From Spirochaetia bacterium (GTDB taxonomy: Bacteria; Spirochaetota; Spirochaetia; CADAEX01): 64,000 nucleotides of DNA. Shown here piece after piece: positions 1,321 to 55,126 of the stretch; positions within the stretch are counted from its first letter, which is position 1, and every line of letters begins with the position of its first letter. The position numbers were made by a program, and so were the translations under genes. The stretch lies in contig JAGCPA010000089.1 in the NCBI GenBank assembly GCA_017642445.1, positions 368 to 64,367 of the forward strand. Direction: 5' to 3'. The notes beneath the pieces are model-generated. The model was not told the origin of the DNA, searched no databases, and saw nothing but the letters and a program-made list of their open reading frames with translations.

Positions 1321-2448
1321 CTACTCAATATCCCAGTGCCCATTTTTTTTAGCACCAACACGTTTGATAAGCCCCATATCTTTAAGCTTTTTCATATTTC
1401 GGTTAATCGTTTCGCGGGCAAGTGAAAGCTTTTGAGCAAGTTCAGTTTGTGAAATACTATTGTCTTCGGCTATAGCTTCAAGGATATTCTGTTGCACTCT
1501 TGTTAAATTTACTGTGATTTTACTGTGACTTTTATGTGACTTTTCAGTGATCTTTTCGGTATAACGAATATGGGTAAACCTGTTCTTTAATTCATTACGC
1601 TCCCCAAGCAGGAGATTACGGAAAAAGCGTCTCAGAAAATCTAAATTTGAATAAATCCCTTTCTTGACATTGGAATAATTTGCTCTCACCAGTGAGTTAC
1701 GGAAATACCAGCTGTTTGTTTTAAATGGTTCATTACCAACTATAAAGCCAAGAGAACGAAGATACTTTATGACAAAAACAGCTGTTGTCCGAGTATTTCC
1801 TTCTCCAAATGGATGAACTTGCCAAATATTGGCAACAAACTGTGTAATATGATCGACTATCTCTTCCTTTGATAATTTGGAATAATTAAATTTACGTTCT
1901 TCATCAAAATCATATCTCAGTGTTTCTTCAATTAATTCATATGGAGCATATAAAACAGTGTCCCCATCTAAAGCCCATTCTTTTTTTGTGATGTTATAGC
2001 TCCGAAATTTACCAGCTTTTACCCTGAAAAGAACTCCTTTAAATAAACGCTCATGGATTGAAAGAAGTTGACTTATATTGAAACTGAAGGAATATTCCTC
2101 AACTAATTCGGTTATTCTGGAAGAAACCTCATCAGCTTCTCTTTCTTTTTCTTCTTCTGCAGTCCTATTTTTTCTTGATTCATAGTAGCTTTCAATTAAC
2201 TGCTTTACTTCCTTGATAGAGATTTCGCCTTCAATATTGCGTTTTGCAAGAGAATACAGGTAAGGAGATGGGGTAAGACCATCAACTTGCTGGAGACCTG
2301 TGGCTATAGACCAGGCAATACTTTTCTCTTTCTGATCCGGCTCACCTTCACGGATGTATTGTTCAAAATCAAGCTCTTTCACATTTGTATTGTAACATAT
2401 ATTTACAATTTTGTCACATTTATTGTGACTTTTATGTGACTTTATCAA
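1321..2448 (-). CDS. Fic/DOC family protein with a C-terminal winged-helix DNA-binding domain. The annotated start is a TTG; a GTG start at VKELDF is also possible.
   Basis: The Fic core motif is degenerate: HPFGEGNTRTT against canonical HxFx(D/E)GNGRxxR. The C-terminus LTRVQQNILEAIAEDNSISQTELAQKLSLARETINRNMKKLKDMGLIKR is HTH-like. The codon at 2446..2448 is TTG, and the hsdR stop TGA overlaps it. Confidence 0.75.
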   Translation of the reverse strand: MIKSHKSHNKCDKIVNICYNTNVKELDFEQYIREGEPDQKEKSIAWSIATGLQQVDGLTPSPYLYSLAKRNIEGEISIKEVKQLIESYYESRKNRTAEEEKEREADEVSSRITELVEEYSFSFNISQLLSIHERLFKGVLFRVKAGKFRSYNITKKEWALDGDTVLYAPYELIEETLRYDFDEERKFNYSKLSKEEIVDHITQFVANIWQVHPFGEGNTRTTAVFVIKYLRSLGFIVGNEPFKTNSWYFRNSLVRANYSNVKKGIYSNLDFLRRFFRNLLLGERNELKNRFTHIRYTEKITEKSHKSHSKITVNLTRVQQNILEAIAEDNSISQTELAQKLSLARETINRNMKKLKDMGLIKRVGAKKNGHWDIE

Positions 2449-5400
2449 TCACGATGCATTATATTTCTTAAAGTTTTCGGCCTGCTCGAATACTTCGGCA
2501 TAAACCTCATTTCGTGGAACTGGCGGATAACCGTTCTCATCCAGCAGAATAATCAAATCAGACTCCAGCTCAGCCTTCACGTCAATACGCTGATCCCAGT
2601 CAGTATAACGGGTCTTGTCATCCACAAGCAGCTTAACTTTCTTAGCCAGGTCTTTCATCTTGTTGTCCGAATACTGGTTCTCGAAGTGGAATTTCTTAGC
2701 ACATGATACAAGAATATCGTAGAAAGCCTTTTCCTCAAACGAGATTCCCAGTTCTTTGAACTTTTCCTTATCCTTCAGAATATCATTGAACAGATCATTC
2801 AGTTGCTTTGTGACTTCATCAATTACTTTAACTGTGTATTCATCGTAATGGCGGTTATTGTAAGCATCCACCAGCTTCTTAAGCCGTTCCCCGAACTCCA
2901 TGGCTTTTATCTTGTTTGTCTTCTGGTAATCGCTTAACAGCATCTGAAGCAGATGATTCAGAAGCTTAACTTTTGTATTTGGCAGTTTCAGGCTGTTAAT
3001 TTTTTCCAAATATTTAGGGCTGAACAGGTCGACATTAATATTCTTGCCAACAGTAAACAGTTCCTCAACTCCATCGGACTTAATAGCTTCATCAATCAGC
3101 TGAGCCACATGATGGTTCATAGTGGTGATGTCCGGGGCATCGCCCTTTGTAAGTTTACAAAGGATGGAACGGACTGCAAGATAGAAACCGATGATATTCC
3201 TTTCTTCCTTAGAAATGTATTCGCTGGAAACACATAGATTATACGCTTTCTTAAGGATTTTGACAGCACGCATAAAACGCTTCTCCAAATCCTCTGTAGC
3301 CTGGACAAATTCAACAGCCCTGTTCAGGCATTCAAGCTGGGCAAGCGGCGAACCAGTATAATAAGCACTGGAATCAAATTTGCTTAACATGCCTTCCAGC
3401 ACACTTATCTGATCTTTCACTATGGAAACAGCTTTATCTGTATCCTCAAATTCATCATTATCGTCAGCAGTATAGCGCTTCAAGGCAGTATTCATGGCCT
3501 TTTTGATACCGATATAATCGACGATCAAGCCTTTGTCCTTGCCCTTGTAAGTGCGGTTTACACGGGAAATTGTCTGGATAAGGGTATGTTTCTGGAGAGG
3601 CTTATAGATGTAGATAGTATCAAGGCTTGGTACGTCAAAGCCAGTGATCCACATATCTACGACAATCGCAATCTTGAAATTTGATTTCTCATCCTTGAAC
3701 TGACGGTCCAGCTCCTTGCGGTATTCGTGGTTTCCTAAAAGTTCAAAGAGTCCCTTGGTATCCTTTGCCTTGTTCTCGGTCATAACCATCTTGACCATCT
3801 CGACAGGCTCTTTTCCTGCAGGTTTATTCCATTCAGGCCGCAGTTCCACTATCTTCTGCCACAGGCGATAGGCAATCTCTCTGTTAGAGCAGACAAACAT
3901 AGCCTTGCCCATAACAGTCGCCCCTTCCCTTACTCTGCTCTCATAATGCTGAATAAAATCTTTGGCAACGGCAGCAACCACATCTGGGTCGCCAAGTATG
4001 GCATCAAGGTTGGCCACAGCTTTCTTGCTCTGCTGAATCTGGAACTCGTTTGCTCCTTCCTCTTCGCACTGGGCATAATACCGTTCTATATCCTTAACTT
4101 TCTCCTGATCCAGGATAACTTTTGCGGCACGTCCCTCATATACCAGATTTACGGTAATACCGTCGGCAACCGATTCCTTCATAGTGTAGGTGTCGACTAT
4201 ATCGCCGAAGACAGGTCTCATATCATCAATAGGAGTTCCAGTAAAGCCGACATAAGTGGCATTGGGCAGAGAATCATGGAGATACCTGGCAAAGCCATAT
4301 TTATGCTCTACAATCCCTTTCTCCTCATTTATAACTATCCGTTCTTCCAGGTTGTTCTGGCTGCGGTGCGCCTCATCACTTATACAGATGATGTTAGAAC
4401 GGTCACTCAGAAGCTTGATATCCTCGCAGAACTTCTGGATAGTTGTAAGGAAAACACCACCGCTGTTCCGGCCCCGGAGTTTTTTCCCAAGGTCAACCCT
4501 GCTTTCTATGTTCTCTATGTTATCATCGCCGATATAGCTCCGGCTTTCCAGGAATATTTTCCCCAGCTGGTCATCCAGGTCTGTACGGTCAGTAATGACA
4601 ACAATTGTAGGGCTGTTCAATTCAGCTGACCGCATCAGAAGCCTGCTCAAGAAAACCATAGTGTAGCTTTTTCCACTTCCGGTGGCACCAAAATAGACAC
4701 CACCCTTTCCATCGCCAGCAGGTTTTAACGCCCTGTGAATGCTGGAGCAAAGAGCTTTTGTAGCAAAGAACTGGGGATACCGGCAGACTATCTTAATCTC
4801 TTTGCTTGTGGCATCCGGAAAGTATACAAAATCGTGTATCACGCTTACCAGCCGGTCTTTCCTGAACAATCCTCTGACCATTGTAATCAAAGAACTGATT
4901 CCATCAGCCTCTTTATCTGAGCTTTCCACCTTGCGCCATGCATAGAAATACTCATAAGGGCTGAACAAAGAACCAAGCTTGTTATTAACACCATCACTTA
5001 TCACAACAAAAGCGTTGTACTTAAAAAGTTCTGGAATATCACGGCGATATCGGATTGTAAGCTGCTTATAAGCATCCTCTATAGTAGTGTTCTCTTTAAT
5101 GGCAGACTTGAACTCAAGTACTACCATAGGAATACCATTCACATATACAATTCCATCAGGAATACGGAGCTGATCCCGCCCCTGAATCTCTATCTGGTTG
5201 ACTATCTCAAAGAAGTTGTTGTCAGGATTGTCAAAATCAATAAGCTGTATAAATAGGTCTTTTTTAGAAGCATCTTCCCTGCGCAATGTAAAGCCGTTGC
5301 ATATCAGGTCAAGGGTTGCACGGTTCGCATCATAATCGTTACCGGAGATATTCTTAAGGAGGGAAATAATGCTTTTGATCTCAGAATCAATCAGAGCTTC

Positions 5401-5556
5401 CTTAGCATACCGATGAAGAAGGTATTTTTCCAAAAGATAAGGAATAAGCACCTCTTTCTTCTCCCGGTGGATATCCCCGCCGGTCTGGTGCATGTATCCT
5501 TCGTTCTCAAACAGCTCTATTATTGAAAGTTCAAGCTGATGCTCGTCAAATTGCAT
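2449..5556 (-). CDS. hsdR: Type I restriction enzyme R subunit (HsdR).
   Basis: 1035 aa. Walker A GATGSGKSYT and DEAH box ISDEAHRSQ are present, with the N-terminal architecture of Type I R subunits. Confidence 0.9.
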   Translation of the reverse strand: MQFDEHQLELSIIELFENEGYMHQTGGDIHREKKEVLIPYLLEKYLLHRYAKEALIDSEIKSIISLLKNISGNDYDANRATLDLICNGFTLRREDASKKDLFIQLIDFDNPDNNFFEIVNQIEIQGRDQLRIPDGIVYVNGIPMVVLEFKSAIKENTTIEDAYKQLTIRYRRDIPELFKYNAFVVISDGVNNKLGSLFSPYEYFYAWRKVESSDKEADGISSLITMVRGLFRKDRLVSVIHDFVYFPDATSKEIKIVCRYPQFFATKALCSSIHRALKPAGDGKGGVYFGATGSGKSYTMVFLSRLLMRSAELNSPTIVVITDRTDLDDQLGKIFLESRSYIGDDNIENIESRVDLGKKLRGRNSGGVFLTTIQKFCEDIKLLSDRSNIICISDEAHRSQNNLEERIVINEEKGIVEHKYGFARYLHDSLPNATYVGFTGTPIDDMRPVFGDIVDTYTMKESVADGITVNLVYEGRAAKVILDQEKVKDIERYYAQCEEEGANEFQIQQSKKAVANLDAILGDPDVVAAVAKDFIQHYESRVREGATVMGKAMFVCSNREIAYRLWQKIVELRPEWNKPAGKEPVEMVKMVMTENKAKDTKGLFELLGNHEYRKELDRQFKDEKSNFKIAIVVDMWITGFDVPSLDTIYIYKPLQKHTLIQTISRVNRTYKGKDKGLIVDYIGIKKAMNTALKRYTADDNDEFEDTDKAVSIVKDQISVLEGMLSKFDSSAYYTGSPLAQLECLNRAVEFVQATEDLEKRFMRAVKILKKAYNLCVSSEYISKEERNIIGFYLAVRSILCKLTKGDAPDITTMNHHVAQLIDEAIKSDGVEELFTVGKNINVDLFSPKYLEKINSLKLPNTKVKLLNHLLQMLLSDYQKTNKIKAMEFGERLKKLVDAYNNRHYDEYTVKVIDEVTKQLNDLFNDILKDKEKFKELGISFEEKAFYDILVSCAKKFHFENQYSDNKMKDLAKKVKLLVDDKTRYTDWDQRIDVKAELESDLIILLDENGYPPVPRNEVYAEVFEQAENFKKYNAS

Positions 5557-5694
5557 TATGTCTCTCCTAAATTAATTAATACAGCATATTTTATATATTT
5601 AAAAAGGGGAAATCTCCATCTGCATCCGCATTTCGTTACATGTTGCTCTTTCTTCAAGAGACACTCCTAAAATATCCTTGAATAATCCTTTAGT

Positions 5695-8600
5695 TTATTC
5701 ATTTGTTGTTTCTATTTCCCTATTTCTATATTCTATGCCAAGTCTTTTTGCAAAATCTATGAACCTAGTATCTTCAGATTTATATTCTACCATTGTAGAA
5801 ATTTTCTCCTTGAAATCTTGTCCCTCATCTTCACTATTTTTTATCATTTTTATAACTATATCAGAATACGAAATTATTACTGAAATAACACAAGGTTTTT
5901 CCATGATTTTTATTGGTAAGATTCTTCTTAAAGCTTCTTTTTTAGCTGTAATATCGGAATACATAAATAGCCATTCACCAAAGAAATCAAATAACTCTTC
6001 AGTCATTTCATGTTTTCCATTGCAAAACAAATCTCGTATATCATTAAATAATGTTCTAAGATTTCTTTCGTTTTTTAACGCCAATGTTACTAATTCTACA
6101 GCTATATTCTTATTAAATTTAACATTCTCACTTTTAGCCTTACTAATCATCAATTCTTGGAATGCCTCATAACAATATTCATTCTTTAAAGCTAAGATAC
6201 AAATTAATTTATAATCATAGGATTCTGCTTCTATACTTTTCATCCAATCATTTTTATTTTTTTTCAATAAATATTCATTTGCTGTTTTATTACAATGCTC
6301 AAACAATTCATCTGGATTTTTCTTGGCATCCACAAAATAAGAAATAGGAATTTCTGATATATTCTCTACCGTTATTGTTTCATAAGAATCCCACCAATTG
6401 TAACATGAAATAATATATTGCGAATCCAATTTTGTTATGTCTTTTATAATTTGATAATCACAAAGTAATTTATGAAGAATTGCTACCTGATTATATTCAT
6501 TATTAGTAATTAATTCCTTGCAAAGTTCTATATATAAAGGATAGCCTTTCATTACGGAAATATTATGAAGCAAATTATCAAAATCTATATAATAATGTAT
6601 TTTACTAGCAATTCGCCTTATGAAATCTGTCTCAGTCTTAGTCATAATTTGGTTTACTAAAATACTGTTACCACCTTGGAAACTTGTCAACCTAGAAATA
6701 CGCATACATATTAAATCATAATAAAAATCCTCTTTAGGATTCAATTTTGCGAATAAATTCACTATGGCCGGATCTGGAATAATATGAGAAACAGGAAAAG
6801 CTAATTCTTTTAATCTTTCATACATTGCAGGAACTGTTTTTTCATCATTAGGGTTAGAATCAATTATTGCTTCTATTCTTGCTTTATAACCCCAAAAACT
6901 ATTTTCATTATCAATTTTAATATATTTAAATGCATTTAAAACTTTTAACGAATCTGAGCTTTGCTTTGATAAATATTTATCTAATTCATTAAAATTGCAG
7001 GTAATACTATATTGTTGATAATCTTCCTTTGCTAACTCAACAAATGTAATAAAATCTGCGGGTACAACTTCTTTTTTCACAAAAAAGTCTTGAATTGTAA
7101 GTCCAATTTTCAAATCCAAAAGACGCTTTAAGCTTAAAAAGTAATCTTCTATTTTGAAGTTAGATGAATTTGCAAATTCATCCAGTATTCGTTTTAAATA
7201 TTTATCTTTATTTGTTATTTTTGATATTAATATCTCTTGATATTCCTGTAGCATATTTTCAGAAGTATTAATTTGATCATATACACAATCCCATGTATTA
7301 ATTAAATTCATGTTAGGCCCATCCTCAAGAATTTCATTTAATACAATAACGGTATTGGGTATATTTGTAATTTTAGTAATAGCATTTTGTAGAATTGGAT
7401 AAAAATTATTTAAAGCTTTAATTTTTTGTAATAAATCGCTATTCTTATTATCAAGAGCTTTAACTATTTGGTCAGTATAAATCAAGTCTAAAGCTAGCTC
7501 TGGACTCAATTGGTAATAAAGAGCAGATAAATATTTCTGTAAATCTGCATCTTTCTCATACTTAAAATTTAAGGCACCTAAAAATGATGGAGTTAATATT
7601 TCTTTAGTTGGATTAGCTTGAATTTTATTCTTCCCAAAGATAAAGAGTGCAATATATTTATCTGGAATTTCAAATTTGTCAAATATTTTTCTAATGGAAA
7701 CAAATTCATTAATGAAAGCAATCATCTTTCTTGGAGTTTGATTATCAATTGTCAACAAATCATATATTTGTAAAACAGAATAATCGACATCTTCATTGAA
7801 TGCATATTTCCATAAATCATTAAAAAAAGCCTTCCAATTGGACATAGTAGGTAAAGAAACTCTAAAAACAACATTAAATGTTTTATTAATAAAATCGTCT
7901 CCATAAGAAACTAATTTTGTATCATAAGGTTTTGTATTACCAGTATTATCAGCATTTATTTCAATATTTTCTTCTTTAAATGCAGAAATTATATGATTTC
8001 TATCAAAAGGTACTATAACGTTAATATTGGGGGTATCATCATTAGCAAAAAGAATATTAATCATTGCCCATACTTCTTTTACTTTTTCAATTGGTAAACG
8101 ATCAATATTATCAAATACAATTATTAAACGATTGTTCTCCAATTTTTCATTAATACTTTTTATATAATCCTTAAACTCTCTTGTTGAGGCTTCTGATTCA
8201 TAAACTGTATTTGTTGAAATTGAATCTCCTGTTGACTTTGCATCATTCTTAAAATCATAATAACTGTGAAAAATCCATTGAAAAAAAGAAACTTCTGATT
8301 CTCCATATTTTTCCTTATATTTTTTCCAATAGTAAATAAGTAATAGTATATATATAGAAAAAAATCCAACAGAAATAATCAGTTGAAGCAAATGGTTCGT
8401 ATCATAATTTTTTTTAAACAAAAGATCTTTCAAAAAAGAGAATGCTATATAAGCAAAAGTCATTATTATACTTAATTTTGTAAATACATTTATTTCTTTT
8501 ACAATTCTTGAACCTATAGTTTCTTTGCGAGAAAGCAATCTTTTCAAACTATCATTCCAATCCCTTGAAAAACGAGGTCCTTCTTCATCTTTGATTAAAA

Positions 8601-8922
8601 AAGTAAGAAGGTTTTCAAGAACAGATCTTTTTAAATAATCATTTTGATATCCCCAAACATCATATGTATAAATAAAAAAATCATTAGTTTTTTGGCCATT
8701 TTTTTGTTTTAACTTGTCTTTTATCAGTTTTACTAAATTTGATTTACCTGAACCCCATGAACCTTCAATTCCAATTATGTTACAGTTTTCATTTGCTTTA
8801 AGTTGATTAACTATACAATTTGCAATTTTTTCGTGTGATTTCCCTTCAAAAGAATCTTCCCCACGTGGATTATTATTAATAAATATCGGATATTTTTTTT
8901 CTTTAACTTTTTCTTCTTTCAT
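5695..8922 (-). CDS. KAP-family P-loop NTPase, 1075 aa, with an intramembrane helix pair inserted in the NTPase domain and a long uncharacterised C-terminal extension.
   Basis: Walker A GIEGSWGSGKS lies at residues 51-61. Two hydrophobic helices (SIIMTFAYIAFSFL and LLQLIISVGFFSIYILLLIYYW) come before the Walker B-like IIVFDNIDRL. The start is 5 nt after the hsdS stop, with an AAGGGG RBS. The gene is extremely AT-rich. Confidence 0.8.
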   Translation of the reverse strand: MKEEKVKEKKYPIFINNNPRGEDSFEGKSHEKIANCIVNQLKANENCNIIGIEGSWGSGKSNLVKLIKDKLKQKNGQKTNDFFIYTYDVWGYQNDYLKRSVLENLLTFLIKDEEGPRFSRDWNDSLKRLLSRKETIGSRIVKEINVFTKLSIIMTFAYIAFSFLKDLLFKKNYDTNHLLQLIISVGFFSIYILLLIYYWKKYKEKYGESEVSFFQWIFHSYYDFKNDAKSTGDSISTNTVYESEASTREFKDYIKSINEKLENNRLIIVFDNIDRLPIEKVKEVWAMINILFANDDTPNINVIVPFDRNHIISAFKEENIEINADNTGNTKPYDTKLVSYGDDFINKTFNVVFRVSLPTMSNWKAFFNDLWKYAFNEDVDYSVLQIYDLLTIDNQTPRKMIAFINEFVSIRKIFDKFEIPDKYIALFIFGKNKIQANPTKEILTPSFLGALNFKYEKDADLQKYLSALYYQLSPELALDLIYTDQIVKALDNKNSDLLQKIKALNNFYPILQNAITKITNIPNTVIVLNEILEDGPNMNLINTWDCVYDQINTSENMLQEYQEILISKITNKDKYLKRILDEFANSSNFKIEDYFLSLKRLLDLKIGLTIQDFFVKKEVVPADFITFVELAKEDYQQYSITCNFNELDKYLSKQSSDSLKVLNAFKYIKIDNENSFWGYKARIEAIIDSNPNDEKTVPAMYERLKELAFPVSHIIPDPAIVNLFAKLNPKEDFYYDLICMRISRLTSFQGGNSILVNQIMTKTETDFIRRIASKIHYYIDFDNLLHNISVMKGYPLYIELCKELITNNEYNQVAILHKLLCDYQIIKDITKLDSQYIISCYNWWDSYETITVENISEIPISYFVDAKKNPDELFEHCNKTANEYLLKKNKNDWMKSIEAESYDYKLICILALKNEYCYEAFQELMISKAKSENVKFNKNIAVELVTLALKNERNLRTLFNDIRDLFCNGKHEMTEELFDFFGEWLFMYSDITAKKEALRRILPIKIMEKPCVISVIISYSDIVIKMIKNSEDEGQDFKEKISTMVEYKSEDTRFIDFAKRLGIEYRNREIETTNE

Positions 8923-8927
8923 TGTTT

Positions 8928-10055
8928 TTACCCCTTTAAAATCTGTGATATTACCAGCTGCTTTAATTCTTGCAGTTTAAAAATTTCTTTTTCATTACTA
9001 CTTATATTTTCGAAAATTGATGAAGCCTTTGTTTCATATTCTGTCATTTTTTCAAGATTGGGTTTAAATACTTTCTCCATCTCAAAATCTCTCGTTACAA
9101 GGGCACTAAAAACAGCTCCTGATGCTTTATTTTTTAATTTTGAAACAGCAAATTTTGAAAAGGAATATGTAAAGAAAGGATATTGCCCCTTTTTATCCTT
9201 TAATGCATAGCAAGATTGATTCATTGCCATTGGTTTCCCTGCCAATGCCAGTTTTCCTACAGTTCCACGACATGTAACAAAGGTTGTATTTTCAGGATAT
9301 AATTTGCTTGAACAATTATTTAAGCCTTCTTCTGTAAGAGTTTTATCAGTCCTAAAACAGTAAATAGATTTATCAATATCGGCTGGTGCAAAAAAAGATA
9401 TATTTCCATTCCAATATGCATTTTCAGTTGTACAAGGAGTTCCACCACCTAATAAATCAATTACATCAGTAAAGGATATCTCTTCTTTTTGTAATTCATG
9501 TTTAAATATGTTCTCAAACAAACACTGTGCTGTCTTTTCCAGCTTTTCATTAATCTTCTGTAAAATATCAATCCGGCGAGTAATGGTGTTGTAGTTATTT
9601 ATAATTTTCTGCTGTTCGGTTATAGACGGAACTGCAAGTTTCATATCACAAAAAACTTCCCATGGCATACTTCCTCGAACTCCACCAACAGCAACATATG
9701 AGGCTTCCCTGTCAAATTCAGTTCTCATAAACCACATGGCAAGATAATCTGGTAAAACCTCAAATGTGTTTTTTATTCTGAAAATATAATAGGCCGGGGA
9801 CATAATTGCTTCATCATACTCTTTTAGACAAGCAATAGGTATTTTCCCATCTCGACTAACTTGCATTAATGAACAGGCAAAATCATTTTTATGAATTACG
9901 CTATATTTTGACAAGTCAGTTCCAATTGTATTTGCCACAGATTTTATAAAGCATTTATCAATACTAACTCCAATCAAATTTTGAACTTTTCCATCTGTAT
10001 TTCGTTCATCTATGAGTTCAACAATTTCACTTAACTTTCTATAATTTGCCTTCAT
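8928..10055 (-). CDS. hsdS: Type I restriction-modification specificity subunit (HsdS) with two target-recognition domains.
   Basis: 375 aa. It shows the Methylase_S two-TRD pattern and sits 8 nt downstream of the hsdM stop. Confidence 0.8.
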   Translation of the reverse strand: MKANYRKLSEIVELIDERNTDGKVQNLIGVSIDKCFIKSVANTIGTDLSKYSVIHKNDFACSLMQVSRDGKIPIACLKEYDEAIMSPAYYIFRIKNTFEVLPDYLAMWFMRTEFDREASYVAVGGVRGSMPWEVFCDMKLAVPSITEQQKIINNYNTITRRIDILQKINEKLEKTAQCLFENIFKHELQKEEISFTDVIDLLGGGTPCTTENAYWNGNISFFAPADIDKSIYCFRTDKTLTEEGLNNCSSKLYPENTTFVTCRGTVGKLALAGKPMAMNQSCYALKDKKGQYPFFTYSFSKFAVSKLKNKASGAVFSALVTRDFEMEKVFKPNLEKMTEYETKASSIFENISSNEKEIFKLQELKQLVISQILKG

Positions 10056-10063
10056 TTTCTACC

Positions 10064-11668
10064 TTATAGTTTTATCTCATACCCAAGTTCCTTAAATACA
10101 GCAAGAAGCTCTTTTTTATTCTCCTCTTCTGCCTTAAACAATTCTGTCAATTCTGATTGCAGTTGTTTCATACTTGTTTCAAAATTTTCAGTCTCATCCC
10201 TGTTTACAAATTCTATATATCTGCTTGGAACAAGGTTATATCCTTTCTCTGCAATCTCCTTCTTTGTCGCGCTGTAACAGAATTCAGGAATATCGTTATA
10301 ATCCTTGTAGGTATCGGTCTGTTGCCAAGAGTGGAATGTACCAGTCACTTTATCCCGGTCGGTCTGTGTAAGCTCGATATATTTTTTTTCAAATGGTGAA
10401 CCCATCTGGCGTAAATCCATGAACAGGACTTCTTCTTCCCTGTTTCTATAGTTCTTGACAATACCGTTATGATCAACAATGCGGGCTTTTTTGTTCTTGT
10501 TTATTATCCAGAGAGTTACACTAATATTTGTAGTATAAAAAAGGTTCCTTGGCAGAATGACTATTGCTTCCACAAGATTGTTCTCTATAAGCTGCTTACG
10601 TATTTCAAGTTCCTGCCCTTCACCGCTCAATGCTCCGTTTGCCAGCAGAAATCCGGCAACTCCATTTGTACTGAGCTTGCTTACCATGTGCAGAATCCAC
10701 CCATAATTTGCATTGCTTGTAGGTGGCACCACATAACCTCTCCAGCGGGCATCATCTACAAGCTCATTCTCTGCACGCCAGTCCTTCTGGTTGAATGGGG
10801 GATTTGCCATGATATAGTCGGCCCTAAGGTCGGGATGCAAGTCATTTGTGAAAGAATTTGCAGCTTTTTCTCCCAGATCGCAGGGAATACCGCGGATAGC
10901 CAAGTTCATCTTGGCCATCTTATAAGTAGTAGTTATTCCTTCCTGCCCATAGACAGAAATATCTTTGGCACTTCCGGCATGGCTTTCCACAAACTTTAAG
11001 GACTGAACAAACATACCGCCGGAACCGCAGCATGGGTCATAAATCTTACCTTTATATGGCTCGATCATTTCGGCAATAAGGTTTACCACCGATTTAGGCG
11101 TGTAGAATTCTCCTTTGCCTTTTCCCTCCTGGATAGCAAACTTTGTAAGGAAGTATTCGTATACCCGGCCCATGATATCGTTTTCTTTGTCCGCATCGGT
11201 CTGGATATTGTTTATTTCATCCAGAAGCGAAGCCAGCTTGGAGACATCAAGGCTCAACCTGGAATAGTAGTTGTCTGGCAAAGCTCCCCGAAGGCTGGGG
11301 TTCTGTTTTTCTATTGTGCTTAGGGCAGTATCAATCTTGATAGCAATATCGTTCTGCTTTGCATTCTGCATTATATACGACCAGCGGCTTACCTCTGGCA
11401 GGAAGAATACATTCTTCATGGTGTAGAATGACTGGACATCCACATATTTTTCCTTGCCGTCTGCAATAAGCTCCTTGCGCCTGGTCTCGAACTTGTCGTT
11501 TACAAACTTAAGGAATATAAGGCTTAAAACTACATGCTTATACTCTGCAGGCTCAACTGTACCCCGCAACTTGTCACAGGCACCCCAAAGGGCATCTTCA
11601 AAGCTGATTTGTTTTTTTACTTTTGCCATAAGATATTCTACCATATTTTTCTTTATTCTCAGTAACAA
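10064..11668 (-). CDS. hsdM: Type I restriction-modification N6-adenine DNA methyltransferase (HsdM).
   Basis: NPPF motif (IMANPPFNQKDW), a SAM-binding region, and a HsdM N-terminal domain. The true start may be the internal MAKVKK at 11629. Confidence 0.9.
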   Translation of the reverse strand: MLLRIKKNMVEYLMAKVKKQISFEDALWGACDKLRGTVEPAEYKHVVLSLIFLKFVNDKFETRRKELIADGKEKYVDVQSFYTMKNVFFLPEVSRWSYIMQNAKQNDIAIKIDTALSTIEKQNPSLRGALPDNYYSRLSLDVSKLASLLDEINNIQTDADKENDIMGRVYEYFLTKFAIQEGKGKGEFYTPKSVVNLIAEMIEPYKGKIYDPCCGSGGMFVQSLKFVESHAGSAKDISVYGQEGITTTYKMAKMNLAIRGIPCDLGEKAANSFTNDLHPDLRADYIMANPPFNQKDWRAENELVDDARWRGYVVPPTSNANYGWILHMVSKLSTNGVAGFLLANGALSGEGQELEIRKQLIENNLVEAIVILPRNLFYTTNISVTLWIINKNKKARIVDHNGIVKNYRNREEEVLFMDLRQMGSPFEKKYIELTQTDRDKVTGTFHSWQQTDTYKDYNDIPEFCYSATKKEIAEKGYNLVPSRYIEFVNRDETENFETSMKQLQSELTELFKAEEENKKELLAVFKELGYEIKL

Positions 11669-13025
11669 AACTGTTCAAATCTGAAAAATCAATATTGTAA
11701 ATTAAATTTTTGTCCAGTTCTTTTTTCTTGAGGAACATGACCATATAAATCGGCAGATAGGTCACACTCCCCTTTTTCTCGATATTTCCGTTGCAGAACA
11801 CATATCCGGCTTTCAGTCCATATTCCTTATTGCCAATCAGGTTGTTCATAGCTTTATGCCGATAATAATCCTTCCCAGATTTGACCTCGATAGGGATAAC
11901 CTTATCATCACACTCAACAAGAAAATCCAGCTCGCCGAACTTCTTGCTGTTGTAGTAGTACAGTGCAAAACCATGGGCAGACAGCTCCTGGGCCACCATA
12001 TTCTCATAGATGGCACCGAAGTTTATATCAATCTTCTGCTCAAGTATTTTTACCTGTATACCATCTGCATACTGGGAAGCTAAAAGTCCCACATCGCCCA
12101 TAAAAAGCTTGAACAGATTAGTTGCCTTGGAGATAACCAGCGGAATCTGCGGTTCTTCTGCCACATAAACAGGCAGAGCCACACCGGCATTCTTGAGCCA
12201 TAGGAAACTGTTATTGAACTTCTTTATCTTTGCGTTCTCGTTCAGTTTCTTAAGGATAAACCGCTTGTTCTTAGAATTCAGCTCACTTGGGATAAGGTCA
12301 AAAATCTCGTTAAGGTACAGTTTTTCCTCTTTATCGTATTTAGAGATATCTTTTTTATACAGCTCTATGATATTTTTCTGGACATCCAGCACTGAATAGA
12401 GATTATTGCTGTTTACAAATGTCTCTACAGAGGCAGGCATTCCCCCTATTATCAGATACAGCCGGACAAGCTCAAGCATTCTGTTATGGATAAAACTGTC
12501 TACCGGGGTCTTGGTGTCAAAAGAGTACTTCAAGGCATCTATAACCTTGTCGTCCACCCCATTGGCCCAGGCAAACTCCTCAAAATCCAGAGGGAACATC
12601 TGCAGAATCCCCATGTACCCGACCGGTACAGAAAGGAGATCGTTGAAAATAACACCAAGCAGAGAACCGCTTAAGATATAGGTATACCGGCCATCCTGTA
12701 CCAGATACTTGATCTGGGTGACAATCTCCTTGCATTCCTGGACTTCATCAAAGAAAATCAGAGTTTTTCCGGGAACCATATCTTTTCCGAATACAGAGGA
12801 TATTCTTAACAATAATTCATCTGCGCCCAGAGCTCCATCGAACAACTTCTTATACTCAGGATTTTTTATGAAGTCAATTTTTATGAAGGATTTGAACCGC
12901 TTTTTGGCATACTGTTCTATGATGTAAGATTTGCCCACCTGCCTGGCGCCTGTTATAAGGAGGGCTCTGTTGGGGTTATCCCTGTAGAAATCATAGATTT
13001 TATCAAGTATCTTACGTCTTAACAT
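11598..13025 (-). CDS. AAA-family ATPase with a DUF4143 C-terminal domain.
   Basis: Walker A LITGARQVGKSY and Walker B LIFFDEVQ. The overall architecture matches the DUF4143 ATPase family. Its 3' end overlaps the hsdM start by about 30-70 nt. Confidence 0.75.
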   Translation of the reverse strand: MLRRKILDKIYDFYRDNPNRALLITGARQVGKSYIIEQYAKKRFKSFIKIDFIKNPEYKKLFDGALGADELLLRISSVFGKDMVPGKTLIFFDEVQECKEIVTQIKYLVQDGRYTYILSGSLLGVIFNDLLSVPVGYMGILQMFPLDFEEFAWANGVDDKVIDALKYSFDTKTPVDSFIHNRMLELVRLYLIIGGMPASVETFVNSNNLYSVLDVQKNIIELYKKDISKYDKEEKLYLNEIFDLIPSELNSKNKRFILKKLNENAKIKKFNNSFLWLKNAGVALPVYVAEEPQIPLVISKATNLFKLFMGDVGLLASQYADGIQVKILEQKIDINFGAIYENMVAQELSAHGFALYYYNSKKFGELDFLVECDDKVIPIEVKSGKDYYRHKAMNNLIGNKEYGLKAGYVFCNGNIEKKGSVTYLPIYMVMFLKKKELDKNLIYNIDFSDLNSFVTENKEKYGRISYGKSKKTNQL

Positions 13026-13037
13026 ATGGTAATTTTA

Positions 13038-13146
13038 CCACTTTTCCATGGATTTTGCAAACAAAATTTCCTTTTTTCCATGGATTTTTTGTCAATTTTT
13101 TCCACTTTTCCATGACTTTTAAGGTAAAAATGTCCACTTTTCCATA
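13038..13146. repeat. Four direct copies of CCACTTTTCCATG (one copy is cCttTTTTCCATG) at an exact 32 bp period.
   Basis: Copies start at 13038, 13070, 13102 and 13134. They sit between the ATPase start and the tRNA-Pro terminator. Confidence 0.7.
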
Positions 13147-13149
13147 AAA

Positions 13150-13186
13150 AAAAGCACCGCAGTTTCCTGTGGTGCTATATACTCAG
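13150..13186 (-). terminator. Rho-independent terminator after tRNA-Pro.
   Basis: On the minus strand the hairpin GCACCACAG-gaaa-CTGCGGTGC is followed by TTTTTTTT. Confidence 0.6.
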
Positions 13187-13259
13187 TCGGGCAAGGCGGA
13201 TTCGAACCGCCGACCTCAACGTCCCGAACGTTGCGCGCTACCAACTGCGCTATTGCCCG
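13187..13259 (-). tRNA. tRNA-Pro (anticodon CGG).
   Basis: Minus-strand sequence CGGGCAATAGCGCAGTTGGTAGCGCGCAACGTTCGGGACGTTGAGGTCGGCGGTTCGAATCCGCCTTGCCCGA folds as a cloverleaf. The acceptor stem is 7 bp, a TTCGAAT T-loop is present, and the anticodon loop TTCGGGA gives CGG. CCA is not encoded. Confidence 0.8.
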
Positions 13260-47486: not shown

Positions 47487-48208
47487 TAGGCCTTGGTACT
47501 TTAATAAACACTGCAAGCATTGTAGCAGCAGGATTCCTGGGACATTTCTTCGGGAAGCTGTTCAATGACAGAAAGCAGAAAGCTATAATAATTGCCTGCA
47601 GCATCTCTGTAATCTTTATAGGAATCAGCGGTGCCATGCCCGGGATGCTCCGTGTGGCAGGAGGCACCCTTGAGTCTATGCAGGCCATGCTTGTCGTCAT
47701 GTGCATTGTACTTGGGACAGTTGCCGGCGAGCTTATGGATATAGACAGGCAGTTCGAGAAATTCGGCGGATGGCTTAAGAAGAAGACTGGCAATGCCAAA
47801 GATGTCCAGTTTGTCGATGCCTTTGTGAATGCCACCATGGTTGTCAGCATTGGAGCCATGGCTATTGTGGGTGCAATTCAGGACGGAATAAGCGGCGACT
47901 TCTCCATCCTGGCTGTCAAATCGGTGCTTGACTTCATAATAATTGTCATCATGACCTCCTCCATGGGCAAAGGCTGCGCCTTCTCTGCAATTCCTGTCTT
48001 TGTATTCGAAGGGCTTGTCACTCTGTCGGCAAAGGTTATTGAGCCGGTCCTTTCCGAGACAGCGATAAACAATATCTCATTTGTCGGCTCTATCTTGATT
48101 TTCTGTGTGGGCTTGAATCTTCTCCATGACAAAAAAATCCGGGTAGCAAATATGCTCCCGGCTCTTATTCTGGCTGTCGCAGCAGCATATCTGCCTTTCA
48201 GCCATTGA
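47483..48208 (+). CDS. DUF554 (YqgA-like) membrane protein.
   Basis: 241 aa polytopic protein whose N-terminus is family-typical. ATGA overlap with dapL. Confidence 0.7.
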   Translation: MIGLGTLINTASIVAAGFLGHFFGKLFNDRKQKAIIIACSISVIFIGISGAMPGMLRVAGGTLESMQAMLVVMCIVLGTVAGELMDIDRQFEKFGGWLKKKTGNAKDVQFVDAFVNATMVVSIGAMAIVGAIQDGISGDFSILAVKSVLDFIIIVIMTSSMGKGCAFSAIPVFVFEGLVTLSAKVIEPVLSETAINNISFVGSILIFCVGLNLLHDKKIRVANMLPALILAVAAAYLPFSH

Positions 48209-48854
48209 TAATCTGTGCTGGACACAGGCGGTACATCTCGTAGCTGCCTGTCTCGCTTGCCTTCTGGATGAATGCGCTGTTCACTGTGATGCTGTTGAGC
48301 ACTCCGCACTCGTTGAACATCCGGTACATCTCGATTACATTTGTTGTGTCAAATCCTGTCAGGTCCAGGCTTGAGAGGGAGCGGCACTTCTGGAACATGC
48401 AGCTCATATCAATCACAGATGCTGTGTTTAAGTTTGTGCAGTCTATGCTGACTGCCTTGGTGCAGCCGGAGAAGAAGAAGATCATGCTGGTAGGGTTCCA
48501 TTCCTGGCAGGAAGAGTCGAAGCTTGCTGTGATGAAGCCTGTTCGTGCCCATGGTGCACCCTTTACGCCATAGCCCTTGGAGCTCACTTCGTATACTGTA
48601 CCCTCTGTATTGTGATCCTTGTTGTCATAGTAGAATGTGAGATGTGTACCTCTGAGGACTGCCTGTGCTCTTACTTCTGTATTTACAGCCTTGACCTCTG
48701 TCTCCTGAACATGATCTGCAGTTGCTGGAACTGCTGCCTTGGAAGGTGTTGTATCGTAGGAATATGAACCGCCTGCCGCGTTGCATGAGCAGAACGCAAT
48801 TCCCATAACCAGTGCCATAGCCATCATCTTTATTGTCTGTCTGAAGTTTCTCAT
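48198..48854 (-). CDS. Secreted DUF285 (BspA-like) surface-repeat protein.
   Basis: Signal peptide, and 26-residue repeats MFQKCRSLSSLDLTGFDTTNVIEMYRMFNECGVL. Confidence 0.5.
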   Translation of the reverse strand: MRNFRQTIKMMAMALVMGIAFCSCNAAGGSYSYDTTPSKAAVPATADHVQETEVKAVNTEVRAQAVLRGTHLTFYYDNKDHNTEGTVYEVSSKGYGVKGAPWARTGFITASFDSSCQEWNPTSMIFFFSGCTKAVSIDCTNLNTASVIDMSCMFQKCRSLSSLDLTGFDTTNVIEMYRMFNECGVLNSITVNSAFIQKASETGSYEMYRLCPAQIING

Positions 48855-49045
48855 CTCAATCTCCTTTTTTGCAGTAACGTTTCACCAACGTTTCCGTTTA
48901 CATTACCAACATTACTACAACGTTACTTAGTTGTCAATAGTAACACAAAAGAAATTTTATGCTTTTTGAAACTTTTTTCTATTTGCTTGTAGTATAAAGA
49001 GTTATCTTAAATAAAATTTTTCAGAAAAAGTATAAAAACAGGCAA

Positions 49046-49078
49046 AAACCAACAATGGATACCATCATTGGTAGTGTT
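49046..49078 (-). terminator. Rho-independent terminator for the symporter gene.
   Basis: On the minus strand, CCAATGATGG-tatc-CATTGTTGG followed by TTTTTGCCTGTTTT. Confidence 0.5.
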
Positions 49079-49085
49079 TTTCTAT

Positions 49086-50693
49086 TTATTTTTTTAACAT
49101 CTTCTCGCTTTTTGCCACAGTCAGGACTGCTATCAGAACGCCGAATACCCCACCTGGTGTTCCAAGCATATCAATAATCGGATCGATTCCCACTATAAGC
49201 CCCAGGGCCTCAATTGGGCAACCTGCCATTGTCAACAGCGATGACAGCAGGATAATACCCACCCCCGGTATTCCAGGCATAGCTATTACAAGAATAACTG
49301 TAGACAGTACCAGCGAAATAATCTTCAGGAACGGCATAGCAATACCATAAATGTTTGCTATTGAGCAGACAACAATCACTATATAAAGGCACAAAGTGCT
49401 TTTAAAAATAGTCATTCCTATCGGGATAGAGAACTTATACATTTTGGGGGATACACCCAGATTCTCAGCAGCCTGCATGGCATCCGGCATAGAGGCTATA
49501 CTTGAAGCGGTTGTAAAGCTGGTCAACAGCATCTGCATCGATTTTTTAAGCACCATAAAAGGATTAAACCCAAGGAAAACAGTAATAAGACTATAAAGCA
49601 GGAAAAGCAGCAGATTGGCAATAATAGCAGTATAGAAAATTCCCAGGACAGAAAGCAGCACCTTGGATCCTGTCATAATCAGCATAGATGAAACAGAACA
49701 GAAGACAAACAGCGGAAGAAGATGTATGAAGAATCCGATAATCTTCATAAAAAGCCTGTTGACTTCATCAAAGATTGAAGAGACAATTTTTATCCTGCAG
49801 GCTCCACATGCCACTCCGATCAGAATTGCCAGAGCTATCAGCTGAATCATATTCCCTTCTGCAAAGGGTCTGATGATATTGTTCGGCACCACATCAACAA
49901 GAACATTCCTTATTGACAGCAGATTGCCCTGAACTGCATCGGAGCTCAAAGCGGCAGTCAGATGTATTCCGACTCCTGTTTTGAACAGCTTAACCACCAA
50001 GTACCCTAAGAATGAAGCAAAGACCATCAGAACAGAAAAAACAGCAAACAGCTTGAAAACAATCCTCTTTATTCCGGACAAACTGTCTGTCTGAGTAAAG
50101 CAGGTGACAATAGAAAAGAAGACAACCGGTACTGCACACAGCTTAAGACCGTTCATGAATATTGTGCTGAAAGACTGGAAAATGTTCTCATTGACAAAGC
50201 TGCAGAACTGTTCCGGCAGCAGATATTTCATGACAGTCCCGGTAACAATTGCAAGGATCATTGCTGTCAATATTAAATACAGATTGAAATACTGGGAGCG
50301 GAAAGCCTGGATCCGGACAGTATTATAATCACCTGAATGCCGGAAGCTTATCTTGTCGCCAAGGGATCGTAAAATAATGCTCTGTATGGCCTCTGCTGTC
50401 TCATCATCGTTCTCTATATCATCAAAATCAGGCTTGGGCAAAAATTCAAAATCATTTCCAGGAACCCGCATATCTATGCTGACATTGCCTAAAAATTTAA
50501 TAATGTTGAGGGAAATATTTTTTTTCTTGGAAAAATCACCATGCTCGATCAGCCGCATCAGCACTTCTTCGCATGTCAGCTCTGCACGCAGTCTCTCTTT
50601 TGAATCAAGCTTAAAATCTTTAAGAGTCTGACGGTTAAAATCCAGAATCTCCTGAATTGTCTCTTGGCCTTTCATATCAAATCTTTTCTGCAT
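49086..50693 (-). CDS. Dicarboxylate/amino-acid:cation symporter (SDF family) with an extra N-terminal cytoplasmic domain of about 130 aa.
   Basis: The C-terminal 400 aa have SDF topology. The N-terminal domain has no TM segments. The gene is AT-rich. Confidence 0.7.
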   Translation of the reverse strand: MQKRFDMKGQETIQEILDFNRQTLKDFKLDSKERLRAELTCEEVLMRLIEHGDFSKKKNISLNIIKFLGNVSIDMRVPGNDFEFLPKPDFDDIENDDETAEAIQSIILRSLGDKISFRHSGDYNTVRIQAFRSQYFNLYLILTAMILAIVTGTVMKYLLPEQFCSFVNENIFQSFSTIFMNGLKLCAVPVVFFSIVTCFTQTDSLSGIKRIVFKLFAVFSVLMVFASFLGYLVVKLFKTGVGIHLTAALSSDAVQGNLLSIRNVLVDVVPNNIIRPFAEGNMIQLIALAILIGVACGACRIKIVSSIFDEVNRLFMKIIGFFIHLLPLFVFCSVSSMLIMTGSKVLLSVLGIFYTAIIANLLLFLLYSLITVFLGFNPFMVLKKSMQMLLTSFTTASSIASMPDAMQAAENLGVSPKMYKFSIPIGMTIFKSTLCLYIVIVVCSIANIYGIAMPFLKIISLVLSTVILVIAMPGIPGVGIILLSSLLTMAGCPIEALGLIVGIDPIIDMLGTPGGVFGVLIAVLTVAKSEKMLKK

Positions 50694-50750
50694 TCCGTTG
50701 TCCCTTCTCTGCCCTTGATTATTGCAAGTTTCTTCTATAAAATCAACAGT

Positions 50751-51386
50751 ATGAAAGATGTGACAAAGGATGCTTCCGGATTTGTCCTGCTATCTGACTA
50801 TGTGCCAGACATCATACAGGAGATCCGCTATTACTCCACATACAACTTCATCGGTGACAGAATAGACGGCTACGAGGAGCCCTGTGCATTCCTTACCCGG
50901 GAGGCTGCCCGGGCACTCAAGGCTGTGAGCAAGGAGATGATGGTGTCTGGATACCGGCTCAAAGTGTTCGATGCTTACCGCCCTGCCACTGCAGTCAAGC
51001 ATTTTATGCTGTGGGGCCTGGAGGACCAGGATATAAGGATGAAGCAGATCTTTTACCCAGACCTTCAGAAGCAGGAGCTTTTCGAGAAAGGCTATATAGC
51101 AACTCAATCCAGCCACAGCCGTGGAAGCGCTGTGGATCTGACCCTGCTGGACATGAGCACCGGGAAGGAGCTGGACATGGGCAGCCCCTTCGATTTCTTC
51201 GGGCCTATCTCCCACCCCGATTACACCGGGATAACCGAGGAGCAGTTTGCCAACAGGATGTTCCTTCAGAAGTGCATGATAAGAAACGGGTTCAAGCCTC
51301 TGGACTGCGAATGGTGGCACTTCATGCTTGCCGACGAACCCTACCCCGACACCTACTTCACATTCCCCGTGGCTTATGACATATGA
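50751..51386 (+). CDS. Zinc D-Ala-D-Ala dipeptidase (VanX/DdpX family).
   Basis: SHSRGSAVDLTL and CEWWHF motifs. The start is set at MKDVTKD (50751). Confidence 0.8.
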   Translation: MKDVTKDASGFVLLSDYVPDIIQEIRYYSTYNFIGDRIDGYEEPCAFLTREAARALKAVSKEMMVSGYRLKVFDAYRPATAVKHFMLWGLEDQDIRMKQIFYPDLQKQELFEKGYIATQSSHSRGSAVDLTLLDMSTGKELDMGSPFDFFGPISHPDYTGITEEQFANRMFLQKCMIRNGFKPLDCEWWHFMLADEPYPDTYFTFPVAYDI

Positions 51387-52267: not shown

Positions 52268-52319
52268 AAACATATGATAAAGATTTGCTTAATGCATTTT
52301 GAGATGGTATAATTAAAAT

Positions 52320-52814
52320 ATGAGACGGCTTTTCCTTCTATTATTGTTACCACTGCTCCTCTTTACCGGCTGTAAACAGAAACAGGTGGAGATGCCCAAT
52401 CCGGTTGTGGAATCCTCTTTCGAGGAGATACAGCAGAAGCTGGGAATAACATTCGGAATCCCAAAGGATGCGGAGAACATCTACTATTCAATCATCGCAG
52501 GGAATCTGGCGCAGGTGGATTTTATCTGGCAGGGAGCTGACTGCACCGCCCGGATAAAGCCCAGCACATCAACAGAGCTTGAGGATATTTCAGGCTTCTA
52601 TTTTGAATGGGACAAAGAGGTGGAGCTGCCTGTTGGCTACAACTCTGCAACAGCCCGCTGGTTCGAGTCTGATGGCGAGACTACAGGAATCGTCATCTGG
52701 CAGGATATTGTGCCGGGCCTCACCTACTCTGTGAGCATGAAGCAGAACGCAACACTCGAGAACCTATTCATCCTGGCCAACGCAGTGTTCATTCCGCTCC
52801 AGGGCGACAGCTGA
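52320..52814 (+). CDS. Hypothetical lipoprotein.
   Basis: Lipobox LLFTGC after a signal peptide. Confidence 0.5.
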   Translation: MRRLFLLLLLPLLLFTGCKQKQVEMPNPVVESSFEEIQQKLGITFGIPKDAENIYYSIIAGNLAQVDFIWQGADCTARIKPSTSTELEDISGFYFEWDKEVELPVGYNSATARWFESDGETTGIVIWQDIVPGLTYSVSMKQNATLENLFILANAVFIPLQGDS

Positions 52815-52818
52815 AAAA

Positions 52819-54709: not shown

Positions 54710-54759
54710 GGTGAGTCTCCTCTTTCAATCATCTTACAACTTAAATTAGTTATTGCTTT

Positions 54760-55008: not shown

Positions 55009-55126
55009 CCTCTAAATTTCAGTATAATATGAGCTTTTTTCTACCGTCAAGTTAAAAAAAATAATTGAAAAAACCAACAATATATAGTAAAATTTTTTTG
55101 TTTTTATTTTTTTTATGGGGGATTTT

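Follow-up and report, generated by a model that had tools for sequence, protein, structure and literature searches.

A KAP-family P-loop NTPase gene with a C-terminal alpha-solenoid as optional, swappable cargo of a Type I restriction–modification operon

Why should the gene for a P-loop NTPase with predicted membrane helices stand inside a Type I restriction–modification (R-M) operon, and does it belong to the restriction enzyme or travel with it? We addressed this question for a 64,000-nucleotide stretch of DNA from a Spirochaetia bacterium (contig JAGCPA010000089.1 of assembly GCA_017642445.1, positions 368 to 64,367; hereafter the window), in which a gene for a 1075-residue KAP-family NTPase lies between hsdS and hsdR. 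The analyses described below show that this gene is an optional, self-contained and swappable passenger of the operon, and not a Type I subunit.

The presence of a KAP-family NTPase between hsdS and hsdR, proposed in the original prediction from the DNA letters alone, was confirmed by a profile search. The Pfam model KAP_NTPase (PF07693) matched residues 32-413 (E = 5e-25, 88.9 bits against a cut-off of 20); with residues 1-420 alone the score was 95 bits, and positions 3-292 of the 293 in the profile were covered. The gene and the parts of its product are as follows.

5695..8922, minus strand: KAP-family NTPase gene (the cargo), 1075 amino acids plus stop (open reading frame; Pfam KAP_NTPase, 88.9 bits)
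7684..8829, minus strand: KAP P-loop NTPase domain, residues 32-413 (Pfam PF07693)
8740..8772, minus strand: Walker A motif GIEGSWGSGKS, residues 51-61 (motif position and conservation)
8305..8487, minus strand: hydrophobic helical hairpin inserted in the NTPase domain, residues ~146-206, a predicted transmembrane anchor (Kyte-Doolittle and AlphaFold)
8095..8124, minus strand: Walker B-like motif IIVFDNIDRL, residues 267-276 (motif position and conservation)
5698..7680, minus strand: C-terminal alpha-solenoid, residues 415-1075, a putative sensor or scaffold arm

Walker A, the Walker B-like motif and the two hydrophobic helices predicted between them were all confirmed as first described. An alignment of 117 family members revealed that G51, G54, W56, G57, G59, K60 and S61 of Walker A and D271, N272, D274 and R275 of Walker B are invariant, and that conservation extends to the C-terminus. 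Kyte-Doolittle analysis detected only two strongly hydrophobic 19-residue windows in the protein, starting at ~146 and at 176-182 and thus between the two Walker motifs; at least two hydrophobic peaks were present in this interval in 109 of 116 members, with hardly any past Walker B. Consistent with this, the AlphaFold model of the full protein, built with the family alignment (predicted local distance difference test score, pLDDT, of 83), contained a long helical hairpin formed by helices 146-168 and 177-206, which is predicted to insert in the membrane. The marks of a KAP NTPase are therefore present together: the profile match, Walker A (GxxGxGKS/T) and Walker B (hhhhD) motifs, and predicted helices inserted inside the NTPase domain. 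The nearest solved NTPases by structure were the ring-forming defence ATPases RdrA and BrxC, Cdc6/ORC and STAND/NLR proteins, and Foldseek agreed with the other fold comparisons of the protein; a PDB search by sequence gave nothing above P-loop noise.

The remaining 661 residues, originally described as about 650 residues with no recognizable domain, matched no Pfam family even at E <= 10. In the full-length model the C-terminal two-thirds of the protein are all-helical, and when the 661 residues were modelled alone they folded into a HEAT/ARM-like alpha-solenoid (pLDDT 89.6). Structure matches to this region were to HEAT/ARM proteins only; fold comparison gave no nuclease, HEPN-like or other enzyme fold. 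A search of this region against nuclease and effector folds, proposed in the original prediction, yielded the solenoid instead.

The neighbours of the KAP gene make up a complete Type I system, with HsdM, HsdS and HsdR all identified by Pfam and NCBIfam models. These genes, and the segment in which the operon differs from its closest relative, are as follows.

8928..10055, minus strand: hsdS, Type I specificity subunit, 375 amino acids (Pfam Methylase_S)
10064..11668, minus strand: hsdM, Type I methyltransferase (Pfam N6_Mtase, 1e-101, and HsdM_N)
2449..5556, minus strand: hsdR, Type I restriction/translocase subunit, 1035 amino acids (Pfam HSDR_N, SWI2_SNF2, T1R_D3-like and T1RH-like_C; NCBIfam hsdR, 473 bits)
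5557..9912, minus strand: segment variable against the sister operon L090, holding most of hsdS (different target-recognition domains), the KAP gene and the spacer before hsdR (blastn)

For a direct view of the operon with and without its cargo, we compared the window with the contig that carries the closest HsdR in the databases (L090; HsdR 98% and HsdM 96% identical in amino acid sequence). This contig represents the same chromosomal site, with carB, the DUF4143 ATPase gene, hsdM, hsdS, hsdR, the Fic gene, a gene for a metallo-beta-lactamase (MBL)-rubredoxin protein and adenosine deaminase in synteny. It contains no KAP gene, hsdS and hsdR being separated by 9 nucleotides, and the two HsdS proteins are only 35% identical. 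Homology detected by blastn ran through hsdM and the first ~140 nucleotides of hsdS, broke off at position 9913 and resumed exactly at the hsdR ATG at position 5556. Evidently, the Type I enzyme exists without the KAP protein. Two more distant relatives have other genes in the same place: an AAA ATPase and an S8 peptidase in one (HsdR 87% identical; L091:5361-8751), and a 918-residue protein, RhuM, DUF3791 and DUF3990 in the other (HsdR 81% identical; L092:4101-8988). The 918-residue protein gave only a weak, sub-threshold match to AAA_21, and the genes in both slots are further uncharacterised candidate defence cargos. Because relatives hold different genes or none there, the hsdS–hsdR junction is a variable cargo slot. 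Exchange of the slot involves the hsdS target-recognition domains as well, presumably through recombination between the conserved hsdM/hsdS 5' end on one side and the hsdR 5' end on the other.

The history of the KAP family is likewise separate from that of its host operons. A neighbour-joining tree placed R-M-embedded members in at least three clades, interleaved with stand-alone ones. Between hsd loci the KAP proteins were 27-42% identical, compared with 59-69% for HsdM (one outlier, 42%) and 53-58% for HsdR (33% for the same outlier). We therefore rejected a single ancient hsd–KAP cassette, since KAP identity is uncoupled from that of HsdM and HsdR and the embedded and stand-alone members interleave. 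A role as a subunit of the Type I enzyme was rejected as well, because L090 lacks the gene in spite of its near-identical HsdM and HsdR, and L091 and L092 hold other cargo. The interleaving on the tree, the association with three R-M types that share no subunits (see below) and, decisively, the KAP-less sister operon thus place the KAP protein outside the restriction system. An R-M-coupled gene or a new Type I accessory, as originally suggested, does not fit these results, nor the 56% of evaluable loci that lack an R-M gene within three genes.

More than 1000 database proteins matched the KAP protein, and the best 120 were nearly all full length (~1035-1090 residues) and 37-74% identical to it; the identical 1075-residue protein, with a label that assigns it to a Spirochaetia MAG, was also called in 11 metagenome contigs. 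When a profile of the C-terminal region was run against 1.84 billion representative sequences, it matched 566 proteins, of which 257 had E <= 1e-30. With few exceptions the matching proteins were 1030-1135 residues long, with the matching domain at ~residues 370-1070, and the shorter ones look like fragments. The solenoid is found almost solely in one architecture, and the proteins that carry it therefore form one discrete family, amounting to ~260-570 clusters when grouped at 50% identity. When one genome per species was scanned, 223 relatives were returned, mainly from Bacteroidota (Bacteroidales, Flavobacteriales, Chitinophagales and Sphingobacteriales) and Treponema, with a few from Cloacimonadota, Planctomycetota, Pseudomonadota and Thermodesulfobacteriota; a search of 50,697 phage records gave no homologue. 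No model in PADLOC (PADLOC-DB v2.0.0), NCBIfam or Pfam, apart from the generic KAP domain of the last, covers the family over its full length; in the window protein and four diverse members, only the first ~100 residues touched the PADLOC models for PifA and QatA. No paper on this family was found in the literature searched.

Several relatives are carried by mobile elements. One identical 1084-residue allele was present at eight loci (L073-L080, e.g. L074:9998-13252) on a conjugative element with tetQ, rteA and rteB, between a DUF4143 ATPase gene and the genes for a TraG-like coupling protein and a relaxase; the records are from Prevotella, Leyella, Phocaeicola, Odoribacter, Porphyromonadaceae, Riemerella and a metagenome-assembled genome (MAG) labelled Ruminococcus. 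Plasmid pFA5 of Fulvitalea axinellae encodes a full-length member of 26% identity directly downstream of an integron-type tyrosine recombinase gene and followed by several small hypothetical genes (L081:9028-12306), a possible case of integron cassette cargo. A distant relative, a 1091-residue 'P-loop NTPase fold protein' (L083:5977-9252), occurs on IncHI2 plasmids of Enterobacter, E. coli, Salmonella and Klebsiella. It resembles the KAP protein over the first ~500 residues, the hairpin region among them (hhalign 99.6%), differs in its C-terminal half and matched no full-length PADLOC model.

The gene is also recognizable by its composition. Its G+C (GC) content in the window is 25.9%, and 17% at third codon positions (GC3); hsdS has 32%, hsdM and hsdR have 42-43%, and the flanking host DNA has 50-54%. 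The gene is thus, as first noted, markedly more AT-rich than its neighbours. The same held at 66 of 66 related loci (mean GC 31% versus 42%; GC3 26% versus 43%), where the GC content of the KAP gene tracked that of the host (r = 0.76). AT-richness is a family-wide bias and not the mark of one recent transfer.

To see in what company the relatives are found, 80 loci from the one-genome-per-species scan were examined with 10-kb flanks, and neighbouring genes were annotated using phmmer, clustering and Pfam. Sixty-three of these loci had at least two genes on each side of the KAP gene and were evaluable. An R-M gene of Type I, IIG or III occurred within three genes in 28 of the 63 (44%) and directly adjoined the KAP gene in 24 (38%), while 35 (56%) had no R-M gene within three genes. 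Adjacent R-M genes were on the KAP strand in 35 of 35 cases, and most gaps were of 35 nucleotides or less: -4 to 35 nucleotides behind hsdS (17 loci), 2-84 behind Type IIG genes and 29-33 behind Type III Res. The most usual order was hsdS-KAP-hsdR: about 17 loci showed the arrangement hsdM-hsdS-KAP-(other cargo)-hsdR with the same Type I family as in the window, and three had an EcoEI-type hsdR followed by the KAP gene, hsdM and RhuM. The genes immediately upstream were a Type IIG (Eco57I-like) enzyme at three loci, a Type III mod-(RhuM)-res set at another three and RloA/RloB at four; eight loci were those of the tetQ element described above, and the remaining KAP genes stood alone amid unrelated genes. 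The hsd loci with a KAP gene also carried Fic, DUF1016/YhcG, PDDEXK_4, Schlafen-AlbA_2, AbiEi/AbiEii, SIR2-like, DUF4062, GmrSD and McrBC genes. The window gene is thus nested on the same strand in a multi-gene defence system, and its homologues are recurrently embedded in such systems or associated with defence genes, which is the pattern on which guilt by embedding relies. The description of the gene as defence-type cargo of the hsd operon, and the expectation that homologues would recur in defence contexts, are both in agreement with this survey.

From these data we consider it reasonably probable, though well short of certain, that the KAP gene is autonomous anti-phage or anti-mobile-element cargo. 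By analogy with the membrane defence proteins Tmn and PifA, which are compared with it below, its product would most likely be a single-gene, membrane-anchored sensor. The hairpin would hold the protein in the inner membrane, the solenoid arm and the two NTPase halves would be cytoplasmic, and the protein would probably assemble as a ring oligomer. Binding of a phage-made protein by the solenoid would alter both the turnover of NTP and the state of the hairpin assembly; this change could disturb ion balance or membrane integrity and so halt phage development, the specific membrane outcome being much less certain than the role as autonomous cargo. Placement in the hsd operon would ensure co-transcription and co-transfer with restriction and provide a second layer against phages that escape it.

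Several points weigh against this proposal. At roughly one half of the stand-alone loci the neighbours are housekeeping genes and give no defence signal. The solenoid is fairly conserved (mean majority fraction 0.58, compared with 0.66-0.69 for the NTPase) and is less variable than expected of a sensor engaged in an arms race. The likeness to Tmn is one of architecture and not of homology, there being no match to Tmn or YobI and none to any PADLOC model over the full length; what is said of this family's insertion in the membrane, its oligomeric state, its trigger and its effect on the cell is prediction. Finally, EF_KAP, the one tested KAP fusion that was examined for its mode of action, was reported not to act by abortive infection (PMC13552941).

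The tight same-strand placement behind hsdS, Type IIG and Type III genes, together with direct contact with an R-M gene at 38% of the evaluable loci, would also suit a guard of restriction that follows the logic of PrrC. Such a protein would monitor the R-M system, or recognize phage anti-restriction proteins such as DNA mimics, and fire when restriction is disarmed; PrrC itself is a precedent for an hsd-embedded guard, and Tmn synergizes with PrrC. We consider a guard unlikely, however, since more than half of the evaluable loci have no R-M gene nearby and embedded members interleave with stand-alone ones. The partners belong to three structurally unrelated R-M types, making a shared physical interface unlikely, the protein has no nuclease or HEPN-like effector fold, and the identical allele on the tetQ element is without an R-M gene.

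It is also conceivable, and in our estimate about as improbable as a guard, that the family has no role against phages and is a hitch-hiker in variable islands that serves conflict between or maintenance of mobile elements (entry exclusion, addiction or element competition) or some other membrane process. The spread of one allele over eight loci and eight taxa beside a coupling protein and relaxase, the homologue behind an integron-type integrase on the Fulvitalea plasmid, the distant relatives on IncHI2 plasmids, the AT-richness of the gene at every locus compared and the many stand-alone loci without defence neighbours are all compatible with such a role. On the other hand, elements of this kind typically carry defence genes, and the neighbours that recur most strongly are R-M genes and known defence genes. 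Protection against phage has been demonstrated for Tmn and for related KAP fusions, and the phage records contained no homologue.

A further, more novel reading is that the family serves as a general back-up for restriction. It may form a membrane layer of 'anti-anti-restriction' that is independent of R-M type, in which the conserved solenoid senses anti-restriction proteins or another signature of restriction evasion, not a structural protein of the phage, and the hairpins shut the cell down. This would explain repeated recruitment behind Type I, IIG and III enzymes that share no subunits; we regard it as slightly less probable still than either of the two preceding alternatives. Least credible by far is a true Type I accessory, a fourth component that would act at the membrane as a tether or regulator of HsdMSR, for instance so that the enzyme meets DNA as it enters: its operon position and likely co-translation with hsdS speak for it, but the sister operon with its 9-nucleotide hsdS–hsdR gap, the uncoupling of KAP from HsdM identity and the many members that are not near any hsd genes speak strongly against it.

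Autonomous defence cargo remains the preferred reading. The following elements complete the island.

11598..13025, minus strand: AAA_14/DUF4143 ATPase, first gene of the low-GC island (Pfam; PADLOC candidate PDC-S01, 632 bits)
1321..2448, minus strand: Fic protein with a C-terminal winged helix, last island gene (Pfam Fic and HTH_24; PADLOC candidate PDC-S72, 402 bits)
5557..5694, minus strand: spacer of 138 nucleotides between the KAP gene and hsdR, holding TATAAAAT and AGGAGAG
13186-13259, minus strand: tRNA-Pro(CGG) at the upstream edge of the low-GC island

All six protein genes are on the minus strand, in the transcription order AAA_14/DUF4143 ATPase, hsdM, hsdS, KAP, hsdR and Fic/winged-helix. 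The true start of hsdM is probably 24-39 nucleotides inside the listed open reading frame; gene callers give a protein of 521 or 526 residues. The hsdS stop codon ends at position 8928 and the KAP ATG is at 8922, leaving 5 nucleotides between them, and AAGGGG lies inside the last hsdS codons, as originally reported. The translational coupling to hsdS claimed along with this spacing is less firm than first stated: the 5-nucleotide spacing stood up, and the coupling is only suggested by this geometry.

The spacer upstream of hsdR had been credited with a −10-like element and a ribosome binding site of its own. The 138-nucleotide gap, TATAAAAT and AGGAGAG are indeed present, but a scan for sigma-70-type promoters and terminators called none in the spacer, the total for the region was not above that of shuffled sequence, and the spacer folded no better than shuffles. 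The spacer is also missing from the KAP-less sister operon, and an hsdR promoter within it is not supported by these results. A 12-nucleotide patch, AACGAAATGCGG (window 5615-5626, minus strand; L002:6531-6542), recurs in the KAP–hsdR spacer of a Treponema MAG, where the KAP protein shares only 43% identity with that of the window; the patch had no other occurrence among the 93 loci compared.

The low-GC defence island spans ~11.7 kb (1321-13025), next to tRNA-Pro. A search of the island for an integrase gene, and of its far edge for an att-like copy of the 3' end of tRNA-Pro, gave neither. Four direct copies of CATGGAAAAGTGG, 32 nucleotides apart, occupy positions 13033-13145 and fill the interval from tRNA-Pro to the start of the DUF4143 ATPase gene; the array resembles a set of operator or promoter elements serving the operon of the island. 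L090, the sister contig, has an additional Abi_2 gene between carB and tRNA-Pro. The Fic gene contains short tandem repeats of the AAAGTCACA type on the minus strand, near its 3' end (1508-1554) and at its 5' end (2419-2443), which encode KSHKSH peptide repeats. Elsewhere in the window GC is ~50%, falling to 43-46% at positions 48000-56000, a stretch that may have been acquired as well.

What is new here is a specific family with a solenoid domain of its own, a range centred on Bacteroidota and Treponema, and unusually frequent nesting in R-M operons. That Type I-nested genes act as defence cargo was already known, as was the anti-phage activity of KAP NTPases with unknown C-terminal regions, validated in 2025-26. 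The original statement that no KAP-in-hsd module has been characterized accordingly holds for the literature searched, while its novelty is lowered by the anti-phage KAP fusions and by Tmn (PMC13552941, PMC13001434). If the family is truly anti-phage, it would extend the few known membrane-integrated sensor-effector NTPases (Tmn, PifA and EF_KAP-type proteins) by a sizeable and taxonomically distinct branch found in Bacteroidota and Treponema of the gut and rumen. Annotation pipelines built on PADLOC, NCBIfam or Pfam would miss it, for want of a model beyond the generic KAP domain. The window locus and L090 form a natural pair, cargo present and absent, for testing whether R-M embedding gives layered or synergistic protection. 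The tetQ conjugative transposon allele, present in eight taxa, shows active spread in gut communities and bears on phage therapy and on phage–host dynamics in the microbiome.

Among known systems, the closest in architecture is Tmn, which has two transmembrane helices inside its P-loop domain, followed by an ARM/HEAT solenoid, and forms a decameric membrane complex. Its arms bind RIIB of phage T2, after which ATP turnover rises, Mg2+ is exported and the cell undergoes plasmolysis; Tmn also switches on ATP-sensing defences (PMC13001434). Like Tmn, the KAP protein is a single large polypeptide with two hydrophobic helices in the P-loop domain and a long all-helical ARM/HEAT-like solenoid after it. 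Both are self-contained, have no conserved operon partner and occur in varied contexts, often near ATP-dependent defences. They differ in having no detectable sequence relationship, in length (~1075 residues here, ~1270 in the E. coli clades) and in context, the KAP family being nested in R-M operons far more often, with no conserved neighbourhood reported for Tmn (PMC13001434). The PADLOC model for Tmn, by which the system is defined in PMC13001434 and which was run here without a Tmn positive control, matched neither the window protein nor four diverse members at E <= 0.01, and Pfam YobI did not match the KAP protein even at E <= 10. Membership of Tmn/YobI was thus rejected on model scores, the resemblance being one of architecture alone.

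The KAP P-loop core is also found in PifA of the F plasmid, a single-gene phage exclusion protein that acts at the membrane; as summarized in the Tmn preprint, it excludes T7 by membrane depolarization and nucleotide leakage (PMC13001434). The PADLOC model for PifA matched only residues 31-136 of the KAP protein (3e-15, 53.7 bits, compared with 963 bits for the F-plasmid PifA control), and hhalign gave 97% probability over residues 264-454 only. In contrast to the KAP protein, PifA has 741 residues, is stated in the same preprint's summary to be without transmembrane helices (PMC13001434), shows no similarity to the C-terminal 600 residues and lies in the plasmid pifCA operon instead of an R-M operon. 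With no full-length match, membership was rejected. QatA of QatABCD gave a weak match in the Walker A region (PADLOC 2e-11; NCBIfam 36 bits against a cut-off of 600); only ~100 residues matched and the island has no qatBCD genes, so that this assignment was rejected too. RdrA of RADAR (PDB 8fnt, 8fnu) is soluble, without a transmembrane hairpin, partners the deaminase RdrB and has another C-terminal domain; identity is 10-12%.

PrrC and RloC resemble the KAP gene in position: their genes too are flanked by the hsd genes of a Type I operon, on the same strand and probably in one transcript with them. They are soluble ABC-type ATPases with a C-terminal anticodon nuclease, silenced by the Type I enzyme, whereas the KAP protein has no nuclease fold, belongs to another NTPase class and is not obligately associated with hsd genes. 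A PrrC/RloC-type protein was rejected, there being no HEPN-like effector and an R-M gene, of three types, within three genes in less than half of the loci.

Genes nested co-directionally in Type I R-M, BREX or DISARM systems are mostly defence systems (Payne et al. 2024, 10.1101/2024.01.29.577857), and TgvAB of V. cholerae is a further case of Type I-nested defence cargo (PMC11411939). The KAP family is without a full-length PDC model in PADLOC-DB v2.0.0, and the preprint text of Payne et al. is without mention of KAP; the embedding concept is the same, and the first and last genes of the island here, PDC-S01 and PDC-S72, are among those candidates. Protection of E. faecalis has been shown for KAP NTPases whose fused C-terminal regions are uncharacterized, with Walker B and the C-terminal region both needed (PMC13552941). 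Compared by description only, EF_KAP and the metagenomic fusions (PMC13552941, PMC12632615) differ from the family described here in coming from Bacillota, next to small serine recombinases, and in the 322-residue C-terminal region of EF_KAP; they share with it a KAP P-loop domain with membrane helices, followed by a C-terminal region without a recognized domain.

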